A stretch of 64,000 bases of DNA from an uncultured Bacteroidales bacterium. Lineage in GTDB: Bacteria; Bacteroidota; Bacteroidia; Bacteroidales; JAADJA01. Below are positions 5,946 to 64,000 of the stretch, piece after piece; position 1 is the stretch's first letter; the number at the start of each line of letters is the position of its first letter. The position numbers were made by a program, and so were the translations under genes. The notes beneath the pieces are model-generated. The model saw only the letters and a list, made by a program, of their open reading frames with translations, had not been told where the DNA came from and did not search any database. Where the stretch lies: positions 7,936-71,935 of the forward strand of contig CAVXTE010000059.1 of the NCBI GenBank assembly GCA_963764475.1. The letters run 5' to 3'.

Positions 5946-6629
5946 TTGCCCAGCGATGCCTCGGGGGTGGCTTCCTGGACTTCCTCAACATCGTTAGAAA
6001 CGGATCCGCAGGTAAGTTCGGCTACCACCAATAAAGTTCCAAAATGGAATGGAACCACCCTGGTTGACGGAACTATTGTTGATAATGGAAACGTTGGAAT
6101 TGGAACGACCAGTTCTGGTGCCAAATTGGAAGTAGCCGGGCAGGTGAAAATTACGGGAGGATCACCGGGTGCCGGAAAAGTACTTACCAGCGATGCCAGT
6201 GGTTTGGCCACCTGGCAGTCACGAACACCACTTTATACATCAACCACCGGCACATCAGCTTTTCCCAATGATAACAATTGGCAGGATGTTACGAGTCCTA
6301 TAACGATTAGCGACTGGAACATTGGCGACCTGTTCAAAATAGAAGCAAACGTAACTTTAAGGTTAACAGGGGGAACAGGGATTGATGATTTTAATATCCG
6401 GGTAAAATTTAGTTATAGCTCATGCGGCGATGAGTACAGCGATACCTTCTCTTATACACCTGATGAAGACCTTTCAAACCACGATGACTTCAGGATAGTT
6501 CCTTATTTGGCAATGCACACGTTAGATGGCTGTAGTGCAGGAAGTCTGACCGTTACTTTACAGGTACAAAATACAGGGGATGATCCCTGGGAAGCACGGA
6601 ACAGGATACTGGTTATGACGAAGTATTAA
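5946..6629 (+). CDS. Orphan C-terminal fibre module, in frame directly after the stop codon of 4578..5945
   Basis: No ATG or signal peptide; begins SDASGVASW; contains GNVGIGT..AKLEVAG and GKVLTSDASGLATW. Confidence 0.6.
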   Translation: MPSDASGVASWTSSTSLETDPQVSSATTNKVPKWNGTTLVDGTIVDNGNVGIGTTSSGAKLEVAGQVKITGGSPGAGKVLTSDASGLATWQSRTPLYTSTTGTSAFPNDNNWQDVTSPITISDWNIGDLFKIEANVTLRLTGGTGIDDFNIRVKFSYSSCGDEYSDTFSYTPDEDLSNHDDFRIVPYLAMHTLDGCSAGSLTVTLQVQNTGDDPWEARNRILVMTKY

Positions 6630-56420: not shown

Positions 56421-57923
56421 ATGAAAATCATCCGGTCAGTTGAGATTGCCCTTTCGGGGCTCTTTGTTTGTTTTTTTACCGTTAATTCATACGGTTCACC
56501 CATCGATAACCTGACGGCAAAAAAGGCAGCGGAAAACAAGCTTATTGAATTGAAAATGGCGAGCGATTTTCGGGTCAATACCAACATGCACTGTGTGAAA
56601 GATGAAGATGGCCGGACACTCTATTTCCTTTATGCGATCGAACCCCATGGGTTCATAGCAGTTTCTGGTGATACCGATTTACCGCCGGTGCTGGCCTATT
56701 CGTTCGAAAATGATGTCCCCGCCAACAATGACGACGGGAATTCTGTCGCCGCTTTTTTGACGACTGAAGTTAAAGTACGGTTTGAATCCCTGCCGTTTCT
56801 TCCCGAAGAAATGATCCTGCAGCGGCATCAGCAATGGAATGACCTGCTTTGTGTAATTCCGGAAAACAAGGCAAATGGGAAATTCGAACAATGGCCGCCG
56901 GAAGGAACAACATCAACCGGAGGCTGGCTCGAAACCAACTGGACACAATCGGCTCCTTACAATAATTTCTGCCCGATGGATCCGGTAACCAGCCTGAGAA
57001 GCATTGCCGGCTGTCCGGCCGTGGCCATGGCACAGATCGTGAATTATTACAAAACGATCAACGGAACAACTTTCACCGATGCCGACGATTACCATCACAA
57101 CTATGCCGGACGGAATTACTGGATCGACGATGACCATGAAGCGATCGATTTTCCTTCATTTCCCGATTTGAATGCTTACCTCGACACCGTAACGCTCAGT
57201 TTTAACAATCAGTCGAACTTAAAACAAAACGAGCAGGCAGCCCTTACATTTGCCTGCGGTGTGGCGGCCACACAGGTTTACACATCATCAGCATCCGGAA
57301 CATTTGGTGTCGATCAGGCATGGGCCGCCTATATGAAATTCGGTTTTACGGATGCCGTTTTCTTCAATGACGGTGATACAGCACTTTTTTCGACATTAAG
57401 CCAGAACATGAAGGATGCCCGTCCGGCACATCTTGCCGTGGTGGATGAAGGCTGGACAATGGGCCATAATGTTGTGATCGACGGCTACAATACGGATGAT
57501 TTCTATCATCTCAATTTCGGATGGGGCGGAAGCTACAATGGCTGGTACCTGCTGCCGGATGAAATTCCCTACGGATTGACGGTCATCGAAGGGGTGATCG
57601 CCGATATTGCATATCCACAGGCTACGACTTTCGTTCAGATGCAAAGGACGAATGTTCCTGAAATTAACATATCTCCAAATCCGGCTCACGATGAATTTAC
57701 ACTTGGCTTTGAGGTAGACGAAGCGTCAGATGTTTCAATCCTTCTTTACGACAGCTACGGAAGAATGATTTCTGTTTTGTTTGATGAGCGTTGTGCATCC
57801 GGATTTTACCAGAAAGCAATAAACCTTGAGGATGTCACAGGCACACAGCCTGCTGAAGGAATTTACTTTCTCCGGTTCAGGATAAATGACCGATACGGCT
57901 CAACAAAACTATTGATCCGATGA
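56421..57923 (+). CDS. C10 (streptopain-like) cysteine peptidase with T9SS CTD
   Basis: Spi-like prodomain; WTQ.APYN; AGCPAVAMAQI; GH.VVIDGY; HLNFGWGG; ISPNPA CTD. Confidence 0.92.
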   Translation: MKIIRSVEIALSGLFVCFFTVNSYGSPIDNLTAKKAAENKLIELKMASDFRVNTNMHCVKDEDGRTLYFLYAIEPHGFIAVSGDTDLPPVLAYSFENDVPANNDDGNSVAAFLTTEVKVRFESLPFLPEEMILQRHQQWNDLLCVIPENKANGKFEQWPPEGTTSTGGWLETNWTQSAPYNNFCPMDPVTSLRSIAGCPAVAMAQIVNYYKTINGTTFTDADDYHHNYAGRNYWIDDDHEAIDFPSFPDLNAYLDTVTLSFNNQSNLKQNEQAALTFACGVAATQVYTSSASGTFGVDQAWAAYMKFGFTDAVFFNDGDTALFSTLSQNMKDARPAHLAVVDEGWTMGHNVVIDGYNTDDFYHLNFGWGGSYNGWYLLPDEIPYGLTVIEGVIADIAYPQATTFVQMQRTNVPEINISPNPAHDEFTLGFEVDEASDVSILLYDSYGRMISVLFDERCASGFYQKAINLEDVTGTQPAEGIYFLRFRINDRYGSTKLLIR

Positions 57924-58681
57924 AAAAGGAACACCTATACCCCGACTTTTTTGCCCGCTTTTATGATGTGATCTATGATCATATAAGGAGTTCTGCCGAT
58001 CACGATTATTTTATGCATAAGATCCTTGAAGCGAACGGACCTGTCCTGGAGGTGGGCGCAGGAACAGGACGCTTTTTCACAGAAGCTTTAAAGAATGGTG
58101 CCGATATTTACGGGATCGACATCAGTCCGGCCATGACCGAAGTATTAAAACAGAAGCTTCCGGCAAAGGATCACCACAGAGTTTCTGTTCAGGATGTGTG
58201 CAAACTAAAAATGAATAAGAAATTCAAACTGATCCTTGCACCTTTCAGGGTTTTCATGCACCTGACAACGATTGAGGAACAGCTATCCGCTTTGCACAAA
58301 GTTCATGAACACCTTGAAGCCGGCGGACTATTTATCTTCGACCTTTTTGTTCCTAACCTGAAATTATTGAACGAAGGGATCGAAAATGCGAACGATTTCA
58401 CAGGCGAATATGAGCCCGGTAAAATACTAAAACGCTATTCGACCATGCATGCCGACCTGATCCGCCAGATCAGTCATGTTAAGTTCCGTTTCGAATGGGA
58501 TGAAAATGGAAAGATTCAAAGCAAAGAATGGGTAACGGAGCTGCGGTTTTTCTTCCGGTACGAACTGGAGCATCTTTTGAGGTGTTCGGCATTTGACAGT
58601 TATAAGATTTACGGTGACTTTTCTGAAAATGAACTGACGAAAGACTCGAAAGAGTTTGTGGTGGTGTGCAGGAAAGATTGA
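57920..58681 (+). CDS. Class I SAM-dependent methyltransferase
   Basis: VLEVGAGTGR; GIDIS; HLEAGGLFIFD. Confidence 0.9.
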   Translation: MKKEHLYPDFFARFYDVIYDHIRSSADHDYFMHKILEANGPVLEVGAGTGRFFTEALKNGADIYGIDISPAMTEVLKQKLPAKDHHRVSVQDVCKLKMNKKFKLILAPFRVFMHLTTIEEQLSALHKVHEHLEAGGLFIFDLFVPNLKLLNEGIENANDFTGEYEPGKILKRYSTMHADLIRQISHVKFRFEWDENGKIQSKEWVTELRFFFRYELEHLLRCSAFDSYKIYGDFSENELTKDSKEFVVVCRKD

Positions 58682-58818
58682 TTTATTTTATTGCCCCTCA
58701 CTGGCGCATTCTATGGTAAAATCCAAAAAAATTTCTTTATACTACCGATAGGGATGAATCAGAACCCATTTCAATAGTTCTATCATTCCTCAACCCTCTC
58801 AAATCCTAACTCCTCTTT

Positions 58819-58860
58819 TACTAAATACTTTGTACTAAGTACTAAGTACTAAAGACTAAA
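58819..58860. repeat. Heptamer tandem repeat (TACTAAG-like, six units)
   Basis: tactaaa tactttg tactaag tactaag tactaaa gactaaa. Confidence 0.8.
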
Positions 58861-58889
58861 AAAAGGACCCCACCTTCCGGCAGGATCCT
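58858..58889 (-). terminator. Intrinsic terminator of 58922..59914
   Basis: Minus strand AGGATCCTGCC-GGAA-GGTGGGGTCC followed by a T-run. Confidence 0.65.
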
Positions 58890-58921
58890 CATGACATCGA
58901 ACGTGGCAATATCTTCCCCCT

Positions 58922-59914
58922 TTACGCCTCCACCAGTTCTGTGACCAGGAAGCTGTAAGTACCTTCGTTCACCTTGTCGGGGTTGTTCACCATAATAAAC
59001 AGGTTGCCGCTGGCGCCCAGTTCCGAAGCATATGCATCCGCTTCCTCACCCGGCAGCAGTTCGAGTGCAGAGCCTGGTAACGGGTCGTCGGGAAGCATGG
59101 CCGAATAAAATTTAAGCGATGTACCACCTGTATTGACAATGTTGAAGTACGAATTCGAATCGAATCCGCCAGCCAGTACGGTGACGACAGCCTCCGGGGC
59201 AACTGTTCCCGTCATCGGTTCGGGTGGCTGTGAGTTGCCGTTGCCGTTACCGTTGGATGAACGCAGCAGACTCAGGTCGAAGTACTCCTCTACCTTCGAA
59301 AGGTTATCGCGGTACTTATTAATTAGCAAGCTCAGGTTGGCAAACATGATGTTTGCTACTGAAACACGGGCTGCTTCAAGGTCTTTCGACGCTTCTGTGA
59401 CTTTACCCTCTTTCTGCTGCTGCACGTCCCTGATCTTCTCCAGGTCCGTGCAAAAGGTATCAACATCCACCTGCGTTTCCGCAAGTTCGGGATAATCCCT
59501 CAATACTTCTGCCATAGCCTGAAGTTCGGCAATACGCTGTTCATAGGTTCCCTGCCGAAAGGCTGTACGTCCGTGATTGAAGATCGCCTTGTATTCAATA
59601 CTGCCTTCCAGAAATACCCCCTGAACAGCCAAATCCCACTCCTTCAGTTTTACATCGATCAATTCGGCTATTTTTTCTTCAAAATGCTGGGTTTCGGATG
59701 AATATCTTCTTTTGGCAAGTATCGATCCGCTGTATTTACTCGCATACGTATCGCGCGCCGGGCGCGTACGGTCATAGATTTCCTGAATTTCAGGATCGGA
59801 AGATTTGCCGGCCAGTTTCGACAGATGGTCGGCAACAATGGTCAGCATGCGCTTGAAATTGTGCTTAGTAACATTGTCAAAAACATTACTAAGGTAACTC
59901 CATACCTTGGTCAT
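58922..59914 (-). CDS. Uncharacterised cytoplasmic protein: helical N-terminal domain, NG linker, beta-rich C-terminal domain
   Basis: 330-aa ORF with A-rich leader and its own terminator; no signal peptide; no catalytic motif recognised. Confidence 0.8.
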   Translation of the reverse strand: MTKVWSYLSNVFDNVTKHNFKRMLTIVADHLSKLAGKSSDPEIQEIYDRTRPARDTYASKYSGSILAKRRYSSETQHFEEKIAELIDVKLKEWDLAVQGVFLEGSIEYKAIFNHGRTAFRQGTYEQRIAELQAMAEVLRDYPELAETQVDVDTFCTDLEKIRDVQQQKEGKVTEASKDLEAARVSVANIMFANLSLLINKYRDNLSKVEEYFDLSLLRSSNGNGNGNSQPPEPMTGTVAPEAVVTVLAGGFDSNSYFNIVNTGGTSLKFYSAMLPDDPLPGSALELLPGEEADAYASELGASGNLFIMVNNPDKVNEGTYSFLVTELVEA

Positions 59915-60081
59915 AATAATACTTTTTTAAATTAAACAATAGAATTTAGCAATACCCTTAATACTGGCAGCTTAACGGAAAGGTTTCAGCAAATCCCAAA
60001 TTTTTTTATTGAATTACGTACCCTGTCAGTAGTGATACTCAGGATTCAAAATCGTTAAACCTGCGTCAATTCATTGATAAA

Positions 60082-60296
60082 GGTCAATCGAAGCAGCAAC
60101 TGAGCATTTTCACTGTCGAAAATGGTCAGTCAAAGCAACAACTGAGCATTTTCACTGTCGAAAATGGTCAGTCGAAGCAACAACTGAGCATTTTCACTGT
60201 CGAAAATGGTCAATCGAAGCAACAACTGAGCATTTTCACCGTCGAAAATGGTCAGTCGAAGCAACAACTGAGCATTTTCAATGCTGAAACTGGTCA
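60082..60296. repeat. 42-bp tandem repeat, five copies, no spacers
   Basis: Unit GGTCA(A/G)TCGAAGCAACAACTGAGCATTTTCACTGTCGAAAAT at 60082, 60124, 60166, 60208 and 60250. Confidence 0.95.
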
Positions 60297-60360
60297 TCCG
60301 AAGGATGAATTCATAAGATCCATGTTCTGTAGAGGCCATTGGCTTTTTGCCTGAAGTGTC

Positions 60361-60408
60361 AATGATAAAATGATTAAATGTTTAAATGATTGAATGCTTT
60401 AATAATCG
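60361..60408. repeat. Degenerate 8-bp tandem repeat
   Basis: aatgataa aatgatta aatgttta aatgattg aatgcttt aataatcg. Confidence 0.65.
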
Positions 60409-60547
60409 TCTCGTAAATCAAAAACCGTTTGCCGTTAATCCGATTTTTGTCGGCTTTTGGCTTATCGCCGGCAGCATCCGTCTGCAGGCTTCTGACTTGA
60501 AGCATTGAAAGATTGACACCTGACATGTGAGCAGTAAGTATTAACAT

Positions 60548-60580
60548 AAAAAAACCGGCGGTTGTACTATCCGCCGGTTT
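60548..60580 (-). terminator. Intrinsic terminator
   Basis: Perfect 10-bp stem followed by T7 on the minus strand. Confidence 0.8.
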
Positions 60581-60800
60581 AAGATCGCAGGGCACTTTAA
60601 CGGAAGGTTGAATTGCTAAATTCCATTGCCATTAAAGGAATGATGCCCTGCAATGTACGTTGCGGAAACAGATGCCTGCTTTAAAACATCCACCTGTTAC
60701 CCGTTTAAGTTTGTGTTGATGTATGACGACCTGAAATAAAAAATCCTCCGGAAAATGCCAGCAAAACAAGAACAGCCGGAATCTTTTCAATTTCAATGAA
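60548..60800 (-). ncRNA. Predicted non-coding RNA A (~250 nt)
   Basis: Minus-strand -7 element TAACTTTG at 60807..60814; stem GCAGGGCA..CTTTAATGG / CCGTTAAAG.TGCCCTGC; terminator AAACCGGCGG..CCGCCGG plus U-run; no convincing ORF. Confidence 0.5.
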
Positions 60801-60929
60801 ACATCACAAAGTTAAGCTATTTTATGCAGATCAGTACTCCTGTTTTGAACCGGATATTCACGGCAGTGTGTTAATAAATAGCAGACAGTACATGCAGGAA
60901 ATATGAATATCATCATTAGCTTTGATCAG

Positions 60930-61160
60930 CGAAACCACAAAACCGCTGATGATCAATGGATATAAAAATACCTCAAAGACGAAGGGGGGAACAATGGAAG
61001 TTTCCACCCGGGAATCCTTAAACCATGAAAAGAATACAGGAATAACCCTGAGGGGAAGTTTGTTTTTGCTAAATTCCATTTCGCCGGATGAATGATGCCC
61101 TGCAACTTTCATTTTGCGGATGCGGCAGTCCAGCCTTTGGCGGGATTGCCGTTTTTTTTT
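60930..61160 (+). ncRNA. Predicted non-coding RNA B (~230 nt), complementary to RNA A
   Basis: Plus-strand -7 element TAGCTTTG at 60917..60924; 5' hairpin ATCAGCG..CGCTGAT; terminator at 61123..61160. Confidence 0.5.
61123..61160 (+). terminator. Intrinsic terminator
   Basis: CGGCAGTCC...GGATTGCCG followed by T9. Confidence 0.8.
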
Positions 61161-61289
61161 GATTGCCGGTGATAAAAAAACACGGCCTGTTTGGTCGGAA
61201 ATGAAGAGGAAGTTTATATATTTGCTGGAGAGAACCGCTAAATGTCTGTTAATTTTAATATACTGACCAATACGAGCATAATAAAGAAC

Positions 61290-61373
61290 AAAAAAAGAAA
61301 GCGATCCCTTTCAGAACCGCTTTAAATGTTTTCACAACGGAATAATCCTTATTGTGAATTGCTTCAAATTGTG
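61290..61373 (-). ncRNA. tracrRNA of a Bacteroidota type II-C CRISPR system
   Basis: Minus strand CAATTTGAAGCAATTCACAA (anti-repeat to GTTGTGAATTGCTTTCAAA-type repeats), then TAAGGATTATTCCGTTGTGAAAAC, a terminal hairpin and a U-run; divergent from cas9; TATATTCG -7-like element upstream. Confidence 0.85.
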
Positions 61374-61474
61374 CTGCGAATATACAAAATTTATAATTAA
61401 ACAATATCGAACAAAAAATATTGAAATCTTATAAGTAAAAAGAATGTTGATAGCATGAATTAAACCATACACTT

Positions 61475-61576
61475 CTTTGTGAACTCTGTATGTTCTTTGC
61501 GCCCTCTGTGGTTATATTTTTTTGAATTATTTGTTTTAACCACAGAGATATCAGAGTAGCCGCAGAGGGAACAGAG
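61475..61576. repeat. 40-bp imperfect inverted repeat built of CTCTG/CAGAG units in the cas9 leader
   Basis: Arms 61475..61514 and 61537..61576; inner CTCTGTGGTTA / TAACCACAGAG is perfect. Confidence 0.7.
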
Positions 61577-61592
61577 AAAAAAAGCAGAAAAT

Positions 61593-64000
61593 ATGAAGAA
61601 AATTTTAGGATTGGATTTGGGAACAACATCAATTGGTTGGGCTCTTGTTAATGAAGGAGCTAAAAAAAGAAGAAAAATCTTCAATAATAAAAACAGGTGT
61701 TAGAGTTATTCCTTATGGGGATAATCTTCAAAAGAAAAATCCACAAACAGGTAAACTATCAGATATTAAGAATATTGAAGAAGATTTTAAATCAGGACAA
61801 GGAATCTCTCCAAACGCTGGTCGAACGCAGAAACGAGGTGCAAGAAGAAATCTTCAACGCTATAAACAAAGACGCTCACACTTAATTGCTATATTAAAAA
61901 AACACAATCTAATTAATGAAAATACACAACTAACTGATACGGGTAAGAATACAACCTTTTGCATTTGGGAGCTAAGAGCAAAAGCTGCTAAAGAGCAAAT
62001 CTCTTTAGATGATTTTGCACGGGTTATACTGGCAATTAATAAGAAGCGTGGATATAAAAGCAACCGGAAGGCTAAAGATGAAGAAGACGGGTACGCAGTT
62101 GATGGAATGGAAATTGCAAAATTGCTGTATGACCGAAATTTAACCCCTGGACAGTTTACTTATCAGAGACTTATTAATAACAAGAAAAATATTCCTGATT
62201 TCTATCTATCTGATCTGCAAAAGGAGTTTGATATTATATTTGATGTACAGGCAACATTCTACACAGATACCTTTACTCCGGACTAAAGGAGAAAAAGAAC
62301 TTAAAGGAAAAAAACGTGATGCTGTCTGGGCAATTTGCGCGAAAGCATTTAAAGAAAATGGATTTGAACTTGTTGGTTCGAAAAGACAGGCAATGCAGCC
62401 GAACAAAAAATTGAAAATTATGCCTGGCGCGCAAGGGATTATCTGAAAAACTGGATTTGGAACAAATAGTGTTGTTTTTCAACAAATTAACATACAAATA
62501 AATAATTCAAGCGGTTACCTTGGAGCGATATCCGACAGAAGTAAAGAGCTGTATTTTAACAATCAAACTGTTGGACAATATCTCTATAACCAGATAAAAA
62601 ACAATCCACATACAATGTTAAAGAAACAGGTATTTTACCGGCAGGATTATCTTGATGAATTTAAGCCGTATATGGGAGGTGCAAGCCCCAAAACAGGAAA
62701 GATATTTTAACCAGTAAATTAAAAGGACGAAATAAGGAATACGGTTATTTTCTTTCAGCGAAAGCTGAAATCACAAAAAGGCCTTATCAGTGTTTGTGAA
62801 TTCGAGAGGGAGGGAAATCGAGGTTGAGAAGGACGGAAAGAAAAAGAAAAAAATTATTGGTCCCAGAGCAATCCCAAAGTCGTCACCACTTTTCCAGGAA
62901 TTTAAGGTATGGCAAATTCTCAATAACCTGAAATTTGAAAATGTTGAGACTAGAGATGTTTTTACTATTTCTGAACTCGACAAAGAGATGGAAATAAGAA
63001 ATCGGATGTTTGCTGAATTGAATATCAAAGGAAGATTAACTGCCAATGAAGTTTTGAAAGCTACTATCGAAGATTATAAAATGTGGGAGGCGAAAAATTT
63101 CAAAGATATTGAAGGCAACAACACATTTGCATCATTAATGGATGCATTTGGCAAAATAGTTGAATTGTCGGGCCATGAAGTAAATAAATCCAAACCAATT
63201 GAAAGCATCACTCGGGTGTTTGAATTATTGGGAATTAACACCGAAGTACTTGTATTTAACTCAGACCTCAATGGCATCGAATTTGAACAACAGACTTCCT
63301 ATCAATTATGGCATATACTTTACTCATATGAAGGGGATGATTCCGAAAGCGGGAATGAAAGACTATATGAAATATTGAAACGAAAATTCGGATTTGATAA
63401 GGAGTTTGCAAAAATTCTGGCAAATATTACATTTAAAGATGATTACGGAAGCTTAAGCACTAAAGCAATTAAAAAAATATTGCCATTTATGAAAGCCGGA
63501 CACGAATATTCTGAGGCATGTATGTTAGCGGGGTACAGGCATTCTCATTTTGTTTTAAAGGCAGAAAACGAGAAAAGAGAATTGGAAGACAAAATGAATT
63601 TATTGCCTAAAAATAGCTTACGAAATCCTGTGGTTGAAAAAATCCTGAATCAAATGGTGAATGTTGTAAATGCTGTTATTGATTATTACGGGAAGCCAAA
63701 CGAAATAAGGATTGAGCTTGCGCGGGAATTAAAGAAAAGTGCAAAAGAACGGGCTGAAATGACAAGCAATATTGCTAAAGCCACAAGGGAACATGAGGAA
63801 ATCAAGAAAAAGATAAAGGAATTATATCCATTTAATACCGGGGTAAGAATTACAAGGAACGATATCATAAAATATAAGCTATATGAGGAGCTTGCTTTTA
63901 ACGGATACCACACTTTATATACAAATACTTATGTTGAAAGAGATAAACTTTTTAGCAAAGAGTTTGATATTGAACATATAATTCCACAGGCAACATTATT
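61593..64000 (+). CDS. cas9: Type II-C Cas9 (long Bacteroidota type), several frameshifts in the 5' half, 3'-truncated by the window
   Basis: RuvC-I MKKILGLDLGTTSIGWALV; bridge helix RTQKRGARRNLQRYKQRR; KKRGYKSNR; GYLGAISDRSKEL; SPLFQEFKVWQILNN; LRNPVVEKILNQMVNVV; RuvC-II IRIELAREL; HNH start DIEHIIPQ. Confidence 0.95.

Follow-up and report, generated by a model that had tools for sequence, protein, structure and literature searches.

What do the short repeated blocks upstream of one uncharacterised Bacteroidales gene encode? The 64-kb window (the whole stretch of DNA that was analysed) contains a gene for a 330-aa protein (58922..59914, minus strand), and to its right, beyond the repeated blocks, a type II-C CRISPR-Cas locus begins. 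The intervening region may hold genes for small RNAs that act on one another and on the neighbouring mRNA, or it may hold remnants of earlier duplications, part of an mRNA leader, or sites for DNA inversion.

Two predicted divergent RNAs and their complementary segments

RNA A is predicted to be a transcript of about 250 nt from the minus strand (60548..60800), its 5' end being placed from a -7 box and its 3' end at an intrinsic terminator. The box (TAACTTTG, 60807..60814, minus strand) was found by a scan for TAnnTTTG, which has a background of 0.55 per kb per strand in this genome. The 3'-most 110 nt consist of a hairpin with three stems and then the terminator. The hairpin domain (60584..60654, minus strand) consists of P1 (GCAGGGC/GCCCUGC, paired in the MFE fold), a 6-nt bulge (AUCAUU), P2 (CUUUAAUGG/CCGUUAAAG, with one G-U pair) and the apical P3 (GAAUU-UAGC-AAUUC) at the tip, while the terminator (60548..60580, minus strand) has a 10-bp stem, a 9-nt loop and U7. 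Hairpin and terminator together have an MFE of -45.1 kcal/mol (z -5.8), a value that none of 200 shuffled sequences equalled, and for four of five distinct modules the RNA A sense is the more stable of the two.

RNA B, predicted at about 230 nt on the plus strand (60930..61160), has a 5' end estimated in the same manner, and terminates in a hairpin and an intrinsic terminator. The TAnnTTTG scan places its -7 box (TAGCTTTG) at 60917..60924 on the plus strand, and its terminator (61122..61160, plus strand), which was picked up in part by a simple hairpin/T-run scan, ends in U9 and contains G-U pairs that fit the plus strand only. The 3' domain likewise has a consensus with many G-U pairs on the plus strand, and is more stable in the plus sense by 4-11 kcal/mol at three of four loci. 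The initial annotation had placed back-to-back TAnnTTTG boxes between outward-facing terminators, cautioned that neither promoter shows a clear -33 element, and put a segment complementary to the neighbouring leader at the apex of a long RNA A stem. Both boxes (minus 60814-60807, plus 60917-60924) and both terminators were found, no -33 TTTG was read at either promoter, and the MFE fold puts the segment at the tip of a long stem, UAGC being in the loop.

A coding function of the region was considered and rejected, as its ORFs of 50, 54, 57 and 84 aa are broken or changed by indels at locus C7 of the sister species (genome G021). None of the region's ORFs is shared intact by the window and G021 C7, and the 57-aa ORF shows mostly non-synonymous change between the two species. 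Two divergent, structured and presumably non-coding units with outward terminators are thus supported; strand-preferring folds, kept architecture, broken ORFs and conservation bear out this part of the original proposal, while its statement that both units are transcribed stands as a prediction. Among the sequencing runs found to contain this stretch, the DNA runs came from salt marsh and sediment, and no RNA run was listed.

Three blocks occur as direct repeats, namely TTGCTAAATTCCATT at 60613 and 61066 (15/15 match), GAATGATGCCCTGCAA at 60638 and 61090 (16/16 match) and TTGCGGA at 60660 and 61114 (read from the sequence), and the exact forms of the two longer blocks are found genome-wide at only these two places each. 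The right-hand copies make up m2 (61066..61120, plus strand), a decayed and incomplete duplicate of the RNA A gene that contains the apex and the 5' arm, with its 15-, 16- and 7-nt blocks in the same DNA orientation as in the RNA A gene. Since copies in the same orientation are read in opposite directions, RNA B would be antisense to RNA A in trans over 15 + 16 + 7 nt, with predicted block duplexes of -18.4, -28.2 and -9.5 kcal/mol, respectively.

The apex 17-mer of RNA A (CAAUGGAAUUUAGCAAU, 60612..60628, minus strand) is complementary to RNA B and also to a 17-mer (AUUGCUAAAUUCUAUUG, 59937..59953, minus strand) in the leader of the 330-aa gene, 23-39 nt upstream of the ATG at 59914. The inverted match is 16/17, a duplex of 17 pairs, one of them G-U, is predicted at -19.7 kcal/mol, and opening the RNA A apex has a computed cost of 4.4 kcal/mol. 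With up to two mismatches, the 17-mer has three matches in the 64-kb window against 0.11 expected (three were reached in 0 of 100 shuffles), and the 16-mer has two against 0.06 expected (two were reached in 1 of 100 shuffles). The predicted complementarity of RNA A to the 5' region of the 330-aa mRNA thus exceeds chance in the window; its significance comes from proximity, as a leader-type match to the 17-mer is not exceptional genome-wide (E 3.3). The three direct repeats, the complementarity of the two RNAs and the 17-nt complement in the leader are all present as first described.

A genus-restricted sRNA family

The 3' domain of RNA A belongs, as a diverged paralogue, to a multi-copy sRNA family, for which covariance model R1 was built. 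Of the 29 genomes of the genus, 26 contain full-length matches to R1 at E<=0.1 and 22 at E<=1e-3, while none of 150 other genomes of the order has a match at E<=1e-3. In an alignment of 38 members, which was fitted to model R1, P1 is 99% paired with 8/8 pairs changed on both sides, the terminator helix is 98.6% paired, and none of the covariation measures was reached in any of 500 shuffles; P2 is only 66.7% paired family-wide. The window module belongs to the training set of R1, so that its own score is circular. Its place in the family is indicated by a closing helix and a same-strand intrinsic terminator of the family type (P1 of 7-8 bp enclosing a domain of 55-70 nt, terminator 3-6 nt after P1), CCUUUAAUGG-like and CCUUCC motifs outside the helices that are common to RNA A and the canonical members, and two intermediates (G000 C59:6189 and G014 C4:2999763) that link the window module to the canonical form. 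In the canonical members, closing helix and terminator are retained around a different, highly conserved centre (UUGGUUUUGGUUAAUAAUUAGGUUUAUUC), which does not occur in the window module, where the centre forms P2 and P3 instead; the window module is therefore assigned to a diverged subgroup, together with the copies in G000 C32 and G021.

A covariance search of 58500-64000 against Rfam, as the initial annotation had proposed, gave nothing at E<=1, and the same search of seven family-member loci gave only sub-threshold chance matches. The earlier statement that no known family is represented thus holds with respect to Rfam, but RNA A is not an orphan: judged by sequence and predicted fold, it is a member of an undescribed genus-wide multi-copy sRNA family. 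Gapped P1 pattern scans matched 117 metagenome and 115 genome stretches, of which four, all in the G021 genome, passed a filter for the internal motif, the remainder being chance matches to a loose pattern.

According to the accessible part of a report on Bacteroides thetaiotaomicron, the FopS/GibS RNAs are multicopy sRNAs with TAnnTTTG-type promoters and Rho-independent terminators, which pair near the 5' end of target mRNAs (PMC11697453). The R1 family resembles them as a paralogous multi-copy sRNA family of Bacteroidota with such promoters and terminators. However, it has no sequence or Rfam match to FopS and is confined to one uncultured genus, and the FopS/GibS model, whose presence in the searched Rfam release 15 is assumed from the deposition stated in that part of the report (PMC11697453), had no match at E<=1 in 58500-64000. 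Moreover, FopS is described there as about 65-70 nt long with a single-stranded 5' seed and with start-codon-proximal sites (PMC11697453), whereas the window module is a closed hairpin of about 70 nt before a terminator, with a putative apical seed and a leader 17-mer further off, 23-39 nt upstream of the ATG. The same part of the source mentions no antisense RNA dedicated to FopS (PMC11697453), while RNA B is a candidate for such a partner here.

Conservation of the pair and competing explanations

Comparison with G021 C7, the only orthologous locus, gives identities in RNA A of 126/132 (5' part), 85/85 (hairpin) and 37/39 (terminator), in the promoter region of 122/129, and in the three parts of RNA B of 117/130, 59/63 and 35/38 (211/231 in total). 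Third codon positions are identical at 269/330 (81.5%), and the spacer between array and minus-strand terminator at 208/240. The RNA region is more conserved than third codon positions, and constraint is weaker on RNA B than on RNA A (90-94% vs 100%). The layout of a minus-strand terminator with a module, followed by a half-module with a plus-strand terminator, recurs in G021 at C7, C10 and C12. The middle of C12 is too diverged for BLAST, yet both -7 boxes keep the same spacing within 1 nt: measured from the plus-strand terminator core, the RNA B box lies at -229/-230 in the window, G021 C7 and G021 C12, and the RNA A box at -331/-332 from the plus-strand terminator in the same three loci. 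In each locus the partner copy scores higher against its own apex (18 and 15) than against the apex of the other locus (12 and 9). Model R2 of RNA B has strong matches only at its four training loci, with weaker matches on the plus sense of G021 modules and less than 32 bits otherwise; RNA B is present only in the species of the window and one sister species, and the pair is known from these two uncultured species only. Leader and module are identical in the sole orthologue; paralogue C47 keeps about 11 of 15 positions (by eye), and other homologue loci are without the RNA A module.

We tentatively favour, at somewhat less than even confidence, a locus of two divergent sRNA genes in which RNA A acts on the leader and RNA B counters RNA A. 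RNA A would be transcribed from the minus strand (from about 60800 to 60548) and RNA B from the plus strand (from about 60930 to 61160). The weakly structured apex of RNA A would pair with the leader of the adjacent 330-aa mRNA and thereby modulate its translation or stability, while RNA B would titrate or destabilise RNA A. Sequence elements, strand-specific structures, family membership, conservation and recurrence of the layout are shown by the analysis, while transcription, 5' ends, both pairings in vivo and the direction of any regulation are inferred.

In a simpler account, which we regard as rather unlikely but the strongest of the alternatives, only RNA A works as an sRNA gene; m2 and the leader 17-mer, and perhaps also the terminator on the plus strand, are decaying remnants of local duplications and an inversion of that gene, and the complementarities are non-regulatory. 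The 5' partner of P1 is missing from m2, which in the RNA A sense reaches only 15.6 bits under R1; the edges of its blocks are decayed in G021 C7, where each RNA B block has lost one edge position, and further in C12, where the complementarity of the two RNAs has about four mismatches and a gap in 26. The paralogous loci are patchworks of rearranged segments, two of them with broken gene copies. The leader, as read from the sequence, appears to hold a rearranged module fragment, with a module-like 3'-half beside the inverted apex, and the apex-leader complementarity could thus be a by-product of duplication. Only the window member of the six family members in G000 has a local complement, so that leader targeting is not a family trait. 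Against this account, the RNA B region exceeds third codon positions in its identity to the sister species, its 3' domain is strand-specific with G-U pairs, and the plus-strand -7 box keeps its distance from the terminator even in the diverged C12.

RNA A might also be the prematurely terminated leader of a long 330-aa mRNA, subject to regulated read-through and with the apex pairing to the 17-mer in cis. The minus strand carries the whole series from RNA A and its terminator through the 42-nt array and the 17-mer to the gene, the -7 box of RNA A is the sole gene-sense consensus box in the 1.4 kb upstream of the ATG, and a module followed by an array is also found at G000 C59:5766-6307 and in G021 C10. 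However, at 0.55 boxes per kb no chance box is expected in 630 bp anyway, a near-consensus TATCATTG immediately precedes the array, and at the position of TATCATTG a consensus box is present in paralogue C47. Canonical members of the family do not form leaders of homologous genes, and inspection by eye revealed no evident antiterminator beyond a 5-bp possibility; we therefore consider this arrangement distinctly improbable.

Invertons of Bacteroidales are bounded by a short inverted repeat that flanks a few hundred bp upstream of a gene. The locus resembles them in having an inverted repeat around a few hundred bp immediately before a gene of a multi-copy family, and the repeated block of 15-17 nt could be a recombinase site, with the copies at 59937 and 60612 bounding an invertible segment of 658 bp and the direct copy allowing deletion. 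The 16/17 inverted repeat around these 658 bp ends 23 nt from the ATG, and the 42-nt array of paralogue C47 appears inverted relative to its gene (score 28 in reverse vs 19 in the same orientation). Unlike in invertons, no recombinase was found among the eight ORFs in the 9 kb to the left, no promoter logic was found, no -7 box would reach the gene by flipping (sequence read), and no joint or switch of strand was seen in the contigs of four DNA runs, a weak test with low-depth pieces of 34-244 nt. Furthermore, flipping would split a 100%-conserved hairpin, and G000 and G021 share one orientation. We consider inversion very improbable.

That the RNAs are tracrRNA-like or scaRNA-like guides of the adjacent CRISPR-Cas locus can practically be dismissed: cas9 begins 430 nt to the right, the module shares an 8-nt identity (GAATTGCT, sequence read) with a related CRISPR repeat, and a type II-C tracrRNA is likewise a small structured RNA with a terminator adjoining cas9, but the duplexes of RNA A and RNA B with the repeat (-15.6 vs -15.4 ± 1.9 and -14.6 vs -15.4 ± 2.6 for shuffled repeats, respectively) show no anti-repeat complementarity beyond chance, G021 C7 holds the whole RNA pair with another gene in place of cas9, and cas9 and cas1 are broken in the window. 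The true tracrRNA lies at 61289-61385 beside the decayed cas9 (repeat duplex -27.4 vs -12.2 ± 2.6 for shuffled repeats), and an 18-mer spacing scan found no CRISPR array in the assembly.

The 330-aa protein and the wider meaning of the locus

The putative target gene is a member of a multi-copy Bacteroidales family, in which 12 homologues have 47-89% identity to it. Its product has no family in Pfam or PHROG and only matches of E>0.03 in NCBIfam, falls in a protein atlas into hypothetical Bacteroidota clusters only, has nothing better than E 0.052 in a PDB profile search, and has no match in plasmids or phages. Structural comparison (Foldseek, VIA-align) relates residues 225-325 to a PirA-like jelly roll (Z 10.4, rmsd 3.4, 94 aligned), while residues 1-206 give generic matches to helical bundles (Z 8-9.5). 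A strong RNA A module is found at one of 30 loci with homologues of the 330-aa protein, the window's own, and a function of the RNA pair as dual-RNA partner of the protein, as suggested at the outset, is accordingly unlikely. Among 22 other homologue loci scanned for hairpins with a T-run, only paralogue C47 has a comparable sense and antisense terminator pair upstream.

Between the RNA A terminator and the gene lies a tandem array of 5.3 units of 42 nt (60082..60303), of which 216/222 positions are identical in G021 C7. Tandem arrays of 41-42 nt stand upstream of 22 of 25 homologues of the 330-aa gene. Some units fold into strong structures and others do not, and since unit structure varies, a hairpin per unit is not the conserved feature. 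Arrays and protein family look like an unrecognised pairing of cis-element and protein; a literature search for 42-bp arrays in Bacteroidales returned organelle papers only, by which the arrays are not shown to be undescribed.

Returning to the two-gene reading with RNA A acting on the leader, a more far-reaching form of it, which we hold to be improbable, would treat the closing helix and terminator as a re-programmable scaffold, of which the centre was exchanged in this subgroup for a match to the leader of a neighbour, and from which an anti-sRNA arose through a copy read backward, giving a three-RNA switch. Such a switch would control a member of the protein family that nearly always has a phased 41-42-nt tandem array before it, and the RNAs would thus gate an array-dependent system.

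Enterobacterial sponge RNAs such as SroC, AgvB and 3'ETS-leuZ pair with and inactivate an sRNA; they act with Hfq and derive mostly from mRNAs, tRNA spacers or prophages. RNA B differs from them as a candidate for an independent gene, with a duplicate of the sRNA gene as its origin. The proposed three-part logic is analogous to that of CJnc190/CJnc180 of Campylobacter jejuni, where, as the accessible part of the report describes, the mRNA of a nearby gene is repressed by an sRNA acting in trans, which a complementary sRNA of the same locus counteracts (PMC8687705). CJnc180, in the same account, is cis-encoded and overlaps on the opposite strand, whereas RNA B is separate and would be complementary through an oppositely read copy of a direct repeat.

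Post-transcriptional control in Bacteroidota is poorly charted, with no Hfq/ProQ paradigm and few characterised sRNAs, according to the accessible text of the FopS/GibS report (PMC11697453). A multi-copy sRNA family that is undescribed and shows clear covariation lengthens this short list, and the near-universal 41-42-nt arrays before an uncharacterised protein family merit separate study. The locus is small enough for synthetic study in a cultured Bacteroides host, and a candidate triplet of sRNA, anti-sRNA and target derived from copies of one gene would show how such circuits arise.

The RNA A module and its family

A BLAST search of the genus (29 genomes) with 60540–61170 as query returned an orthologue with 94% identity in the sister species G021 (locus C7), two further G021 loci (C10 and C12) matching only both ends of the query, and a diverged copy at C32 of the source genome G000. 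The shared left end of the query is a hairpin module read on the window's minus strand, where it forms the 3′ domain of the predicted RNA A (about 60800–60548) and comprises P1 (GCAGGGC/GCCCUGC), a 6-nt bulge, P2 (CUUUAAUGG/CCGUUAAAG), a variable apical hairpin, a 3–5-nt spacer and an intrinsic terminator. Four of five distinct modules fold 1–7 kcal/mol better in the RNA A sense than in the opposite sense, and where the copies differ, the changes are compensatory or give G-U pairs in the former sense.

R1, a covariance model built from six modules, gives full-length matches in 26 of the 29 genomes at E ≤ 0.1 and in 22 at E ≤ 1e-3. In 150 other genomes of the order, searched with stricter filters, R1 has no match at E ≤ 1e-3; this set included G019, itself a member of the genus, for which the genus search had given nothing better than E 0.013. 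Most matches represent a canonical form, the centre of which differs from that of the window and is almost invariant, and G000 C59:6189 and G014 C4:2999763 are intermediates bridging the canonical and window-like forms. Over 38 aligned members, in an alignment fitted to R1 and with the fit of its six training sequences built in, P1 is 99% paired with 8 of 8 pairs changed on both sides, and the terminator is 98.6% paired; none of 500 shuffles reaches any of the measures, and slid controls fall to 24–55% paired. P2 is only 66.7% paired, thus P2 and P3 characterise the diverged subgroup. Neither the canonical nor the window form is present in Rfam. On these comparative grounds (R1 matches, covariation, bridging members and absence from Rfam), the RNA A 3′ domain is a genuine structured RNA element that has been conserved, and it adds a new, diverged member to an sRNA family not described before; the statement in the initial annotation that no known family was recognised agrees with Rfam, but the domain belongs to a family with multiple copies within the genus.

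In 13 of the 27 member loci examined, the canonical copy follows an ECF sigma-factor gene at a distance of about 130 nt, often as a tandem pair. These 13 loci (L306, L309–L312, L314–L316, L318, L319, L321, L323 and L324), from 13 genomes of the genus, carry the copies at about 1501–1625 of each fetched locus, with tandem copies, where present, about 230 nt apart. Just outside the window's left end, G000 C59:5766–6307 contains a second family member (6189–6307, minus strand) and then a 41-nt × 9 array, has no neighbouring 330-aa gene and is syntenic with G021 C12 via a shared gene of about 160 aa.

RNA B and the divergent layout

The elements from which two divergent RNAs had been proposed are all present in the window, namely three direct-repeat blocks, back-to-back TAnnTTTG boxes (one per strand), outward terminators (minus strand 60548–60580, plus strand 61122–61160) and an inverted 17-mer (59937–59953), which matches at 16 of 17 positions and lies 23–39 nt upstream of the ATG of the 330-aa gene (58922–59914, minus strand). 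The minimum free energy fold also agrees with the claimed apex, placing the 17-mer of RNA A (60612–60628) so that it caps a long stem, the loop of which contains UAGC. With at most two mismatches the 17-mer is seen three times versus 0.11 expected from shuffles of the window, and the 16-mer twice versus 0.06. The anatomy proposed in the initial annotation is right and is strengthened by the comparative data.

The predicted RNA B (plus strand, about 60930–61160) contains m2 (61066–61120), a partial module copy in the same DNA orientation which consists of the apex block, then the bulge and P1-arm block, then TTGCGGA, and which is without the partner arm of P1. In the RNA A sense, m2 scores 15.6 bits with R1, and the plus-strand terminator directly follows m2. 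The four aligned ends (window, G021 C7, C10 and C12) share a consensus hairpin and terminator with many G-U pairs, and this 3′ domain is 4–11 kcal/mol more stable in the plus sense at three of the four loci and equal at the other. As its covariance model, R2, has strong matches at these four loci only, the predicted RNA B is a lineage-specific unit.

At G021 C12, the roughly 400 nt between the ends have diverged so far from the window that BLAST does not detect them. Counted from the plus-strand terminator core, the plus-strand box lies at −229 in the window and at −230 in both C7 and C12, and the minus-strand box at −331, −332 and −332, respectively; in a global alignment both boxes are conserved islands. 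Since TAnnTTTG occurs in G000 at 0.55 per kb per strand, a chance origin of such matching spacing is unlikely. Identity to G021 C7 is 85/85 in the module hairpin domain, 126/132 in the RNA A 5′ part, 122/129 in the promoter region, 211/231 in the three parts of RNA B together, 890/993 in the 330-aa gene, 269/330 at its third codon positions and 208/240 in the array–terminator spacer, and no ORF in the RNA region survives the G000/G021 C7 comparison. These identities, the spacing and the absent ORFs argue for two non-coding transcription units that read outward and evolve under purifying selection; the identities also indicate that RNA A is much more tightly constrained than RNA B. The adjoining block 61161–61232, which includes a plus-strand TATATTTG box at 61217–61224, is common to all three G021 loci, where it precedes genes of about 216–230 aa, and is followed in G000 by tracrRNA and cas9.

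Proposed pairings and their alternatives

The A/B block duplexes are predicted at −18.4, −28.2 and −9.5 kcal/mol, and the duplex of the apex with the leader of the 330-aa gene at −19.7 kcal/mol, with an apex opening cost of 4.4 kcal/mol. Apex and leader are identical between the window and G021 C7, where one edge position is lost from each A/B block on the RNA B side. At C12 the A/B complementarity is interrupted, over 26 positions, by about 4 mismatches and a gap, and the partner copy scores 15 with its own module's apex versus 12 and 9 with the window's. The other family members in G000 have no nearby complement; of the 30 loci that carry a homologue of the 330-aa gene, the window's own is the only one with a strong RNA A module, and the broken paralogue C47 retains a degenerate one (18.3 bits). 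Comparative support for the A/B and apex/leader pairings is thin. As read from the sequence, a module-like 3′-half adjoins the inverted apex in the leader, so a local duplication with rearrangement is the probable source of the target site, an origin equally compatible with a newly evolved sRNA–target pair or functionless debris.

The divergent units with outward terminators are borne out by elements, folds and conservation, and the three-RNA circuit of the initial annotation is a reasonable, unproven reading. A search for RNA-seq runs containing this DNA gave none, and four DNA runs matched it in small pieces only. That RNA A and RNA B would act as a working pair, with the RNA A apex targeting the leader of the 330-aa gene, is put forward tentatively, at slightly below an even chance. 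It is possible, though rather unlikely, that only RNA A works; that RNA A is instead a cis-acting terminated leader is improbable, and that the repeats represent a DNA recombination site is very improbable.

The cas9 neighbour and the arrays of the 330-aa family

In G000, a Bacteroidales genome (4.03 Mb, 126 contigs, 87% complete) of which the window is C59:7936–71935, the RNA pair lies within a gene-free stretch of 1.7 kb, with the 330-aa gene to its left and a type II-C cas9 starting at 61594 to its right. This cas9 and the cas1 behind it (61594–64000 and on to the contig end, which falls inside cas1) contain several frameshifts and in-frame stops, which represent local decay and not assembly noise, because ORFs of 500–670 aa further left are intact. 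No CRISPR array was found in the G000 assembly. The same-genus G008 encodes an intact Cas9 (80% identity across the 403-aa query fragment), with an array of 46–47-nt repeats downstream. A minus-strand block conserved upstream of cas9 in both genomes (61385–61289) has the classical tracrRNA layout (anti-repeat, AAGG, nexus-like hairpin and terminator) and forms a duplex of −27.4 kcal/mol with the 30 nt at the 5′ end of the G008 repeat, versus −12.2 ± 2.6 for shuffled repeats; by layout and pairing, it is the true tracrRNA of the window's cas9 locus. The chance that the RNA pair itself is CRISPR RNA is negligible, as RNA A (−15.6 versus −15.4 ± 1.9 kcal/mol shuffled) and RNA B (−14.6 versus −15.4 ± 2.6) pair with the repeat at chance level, and G021 has the whole RNA locus beside the orthologous 330-aa gene but a different gene at the place of cas9, the G000/G021 homology stopping near 61230. 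Elsewhere in the window, 56421–57923 encodes a member of peptidase family C10 that has a Spi inhibitor domain at its N-terminus and ends in a type IX secretion sorting tail.

Of the 25 homologues of the 330-aa gene examined, from several Bacteroidales genera, 22 are preceded by a tandem array with a period of 41 or 42 nt, a count in which independence is overstated as many of the genomes are kin. The 25 regions comprise 23 of the 30 fetched homologue loci, the seven weakest matches (L283–L288 and L299) being left out, and two G000 paralogues; the misses are L277, L280 and L297, the last with an upstream flank of only about 260 nt. The arrays (window 60082–60303; loci within L270–L298; G000 C27:35345–35683, C32:82746–83057 and C47:15487–15698) have 3–13 units, end 72–509 nt before the ATG and are unrelated in unit sequence between loci, and that of the C47 paralogue is apparently inverted relative to the gene. 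The tandem-repeat periods of G000 peak at 42 (seven arrays) with one of 41, and four of these eight arrays adjoin family genes. Tandem repeats of about 100 and 80 nt at G000 C51:59587–60600 and C63:1–260 adjoin the 3′ portion of an apparent tRNA gene and also repeat it, the tRNA reading being made by eye only.

In the modelled 330-aa protein (pLDDT 84), a PirA-like beta sandwich comes after long helical hairpins, and structure and profile comparisons returned no informative relatives. A coding repeat is ruled out by the 41-nt periods, and a hairpin per unit is not universal among the arrays. The F-plasmid centromere sopC has 43-bp repeats. Since the period equals four turns of the helix, phased DNA sites are suggested, and the arrays may be phased binding sites co-evolving with the 330-aa family protein.
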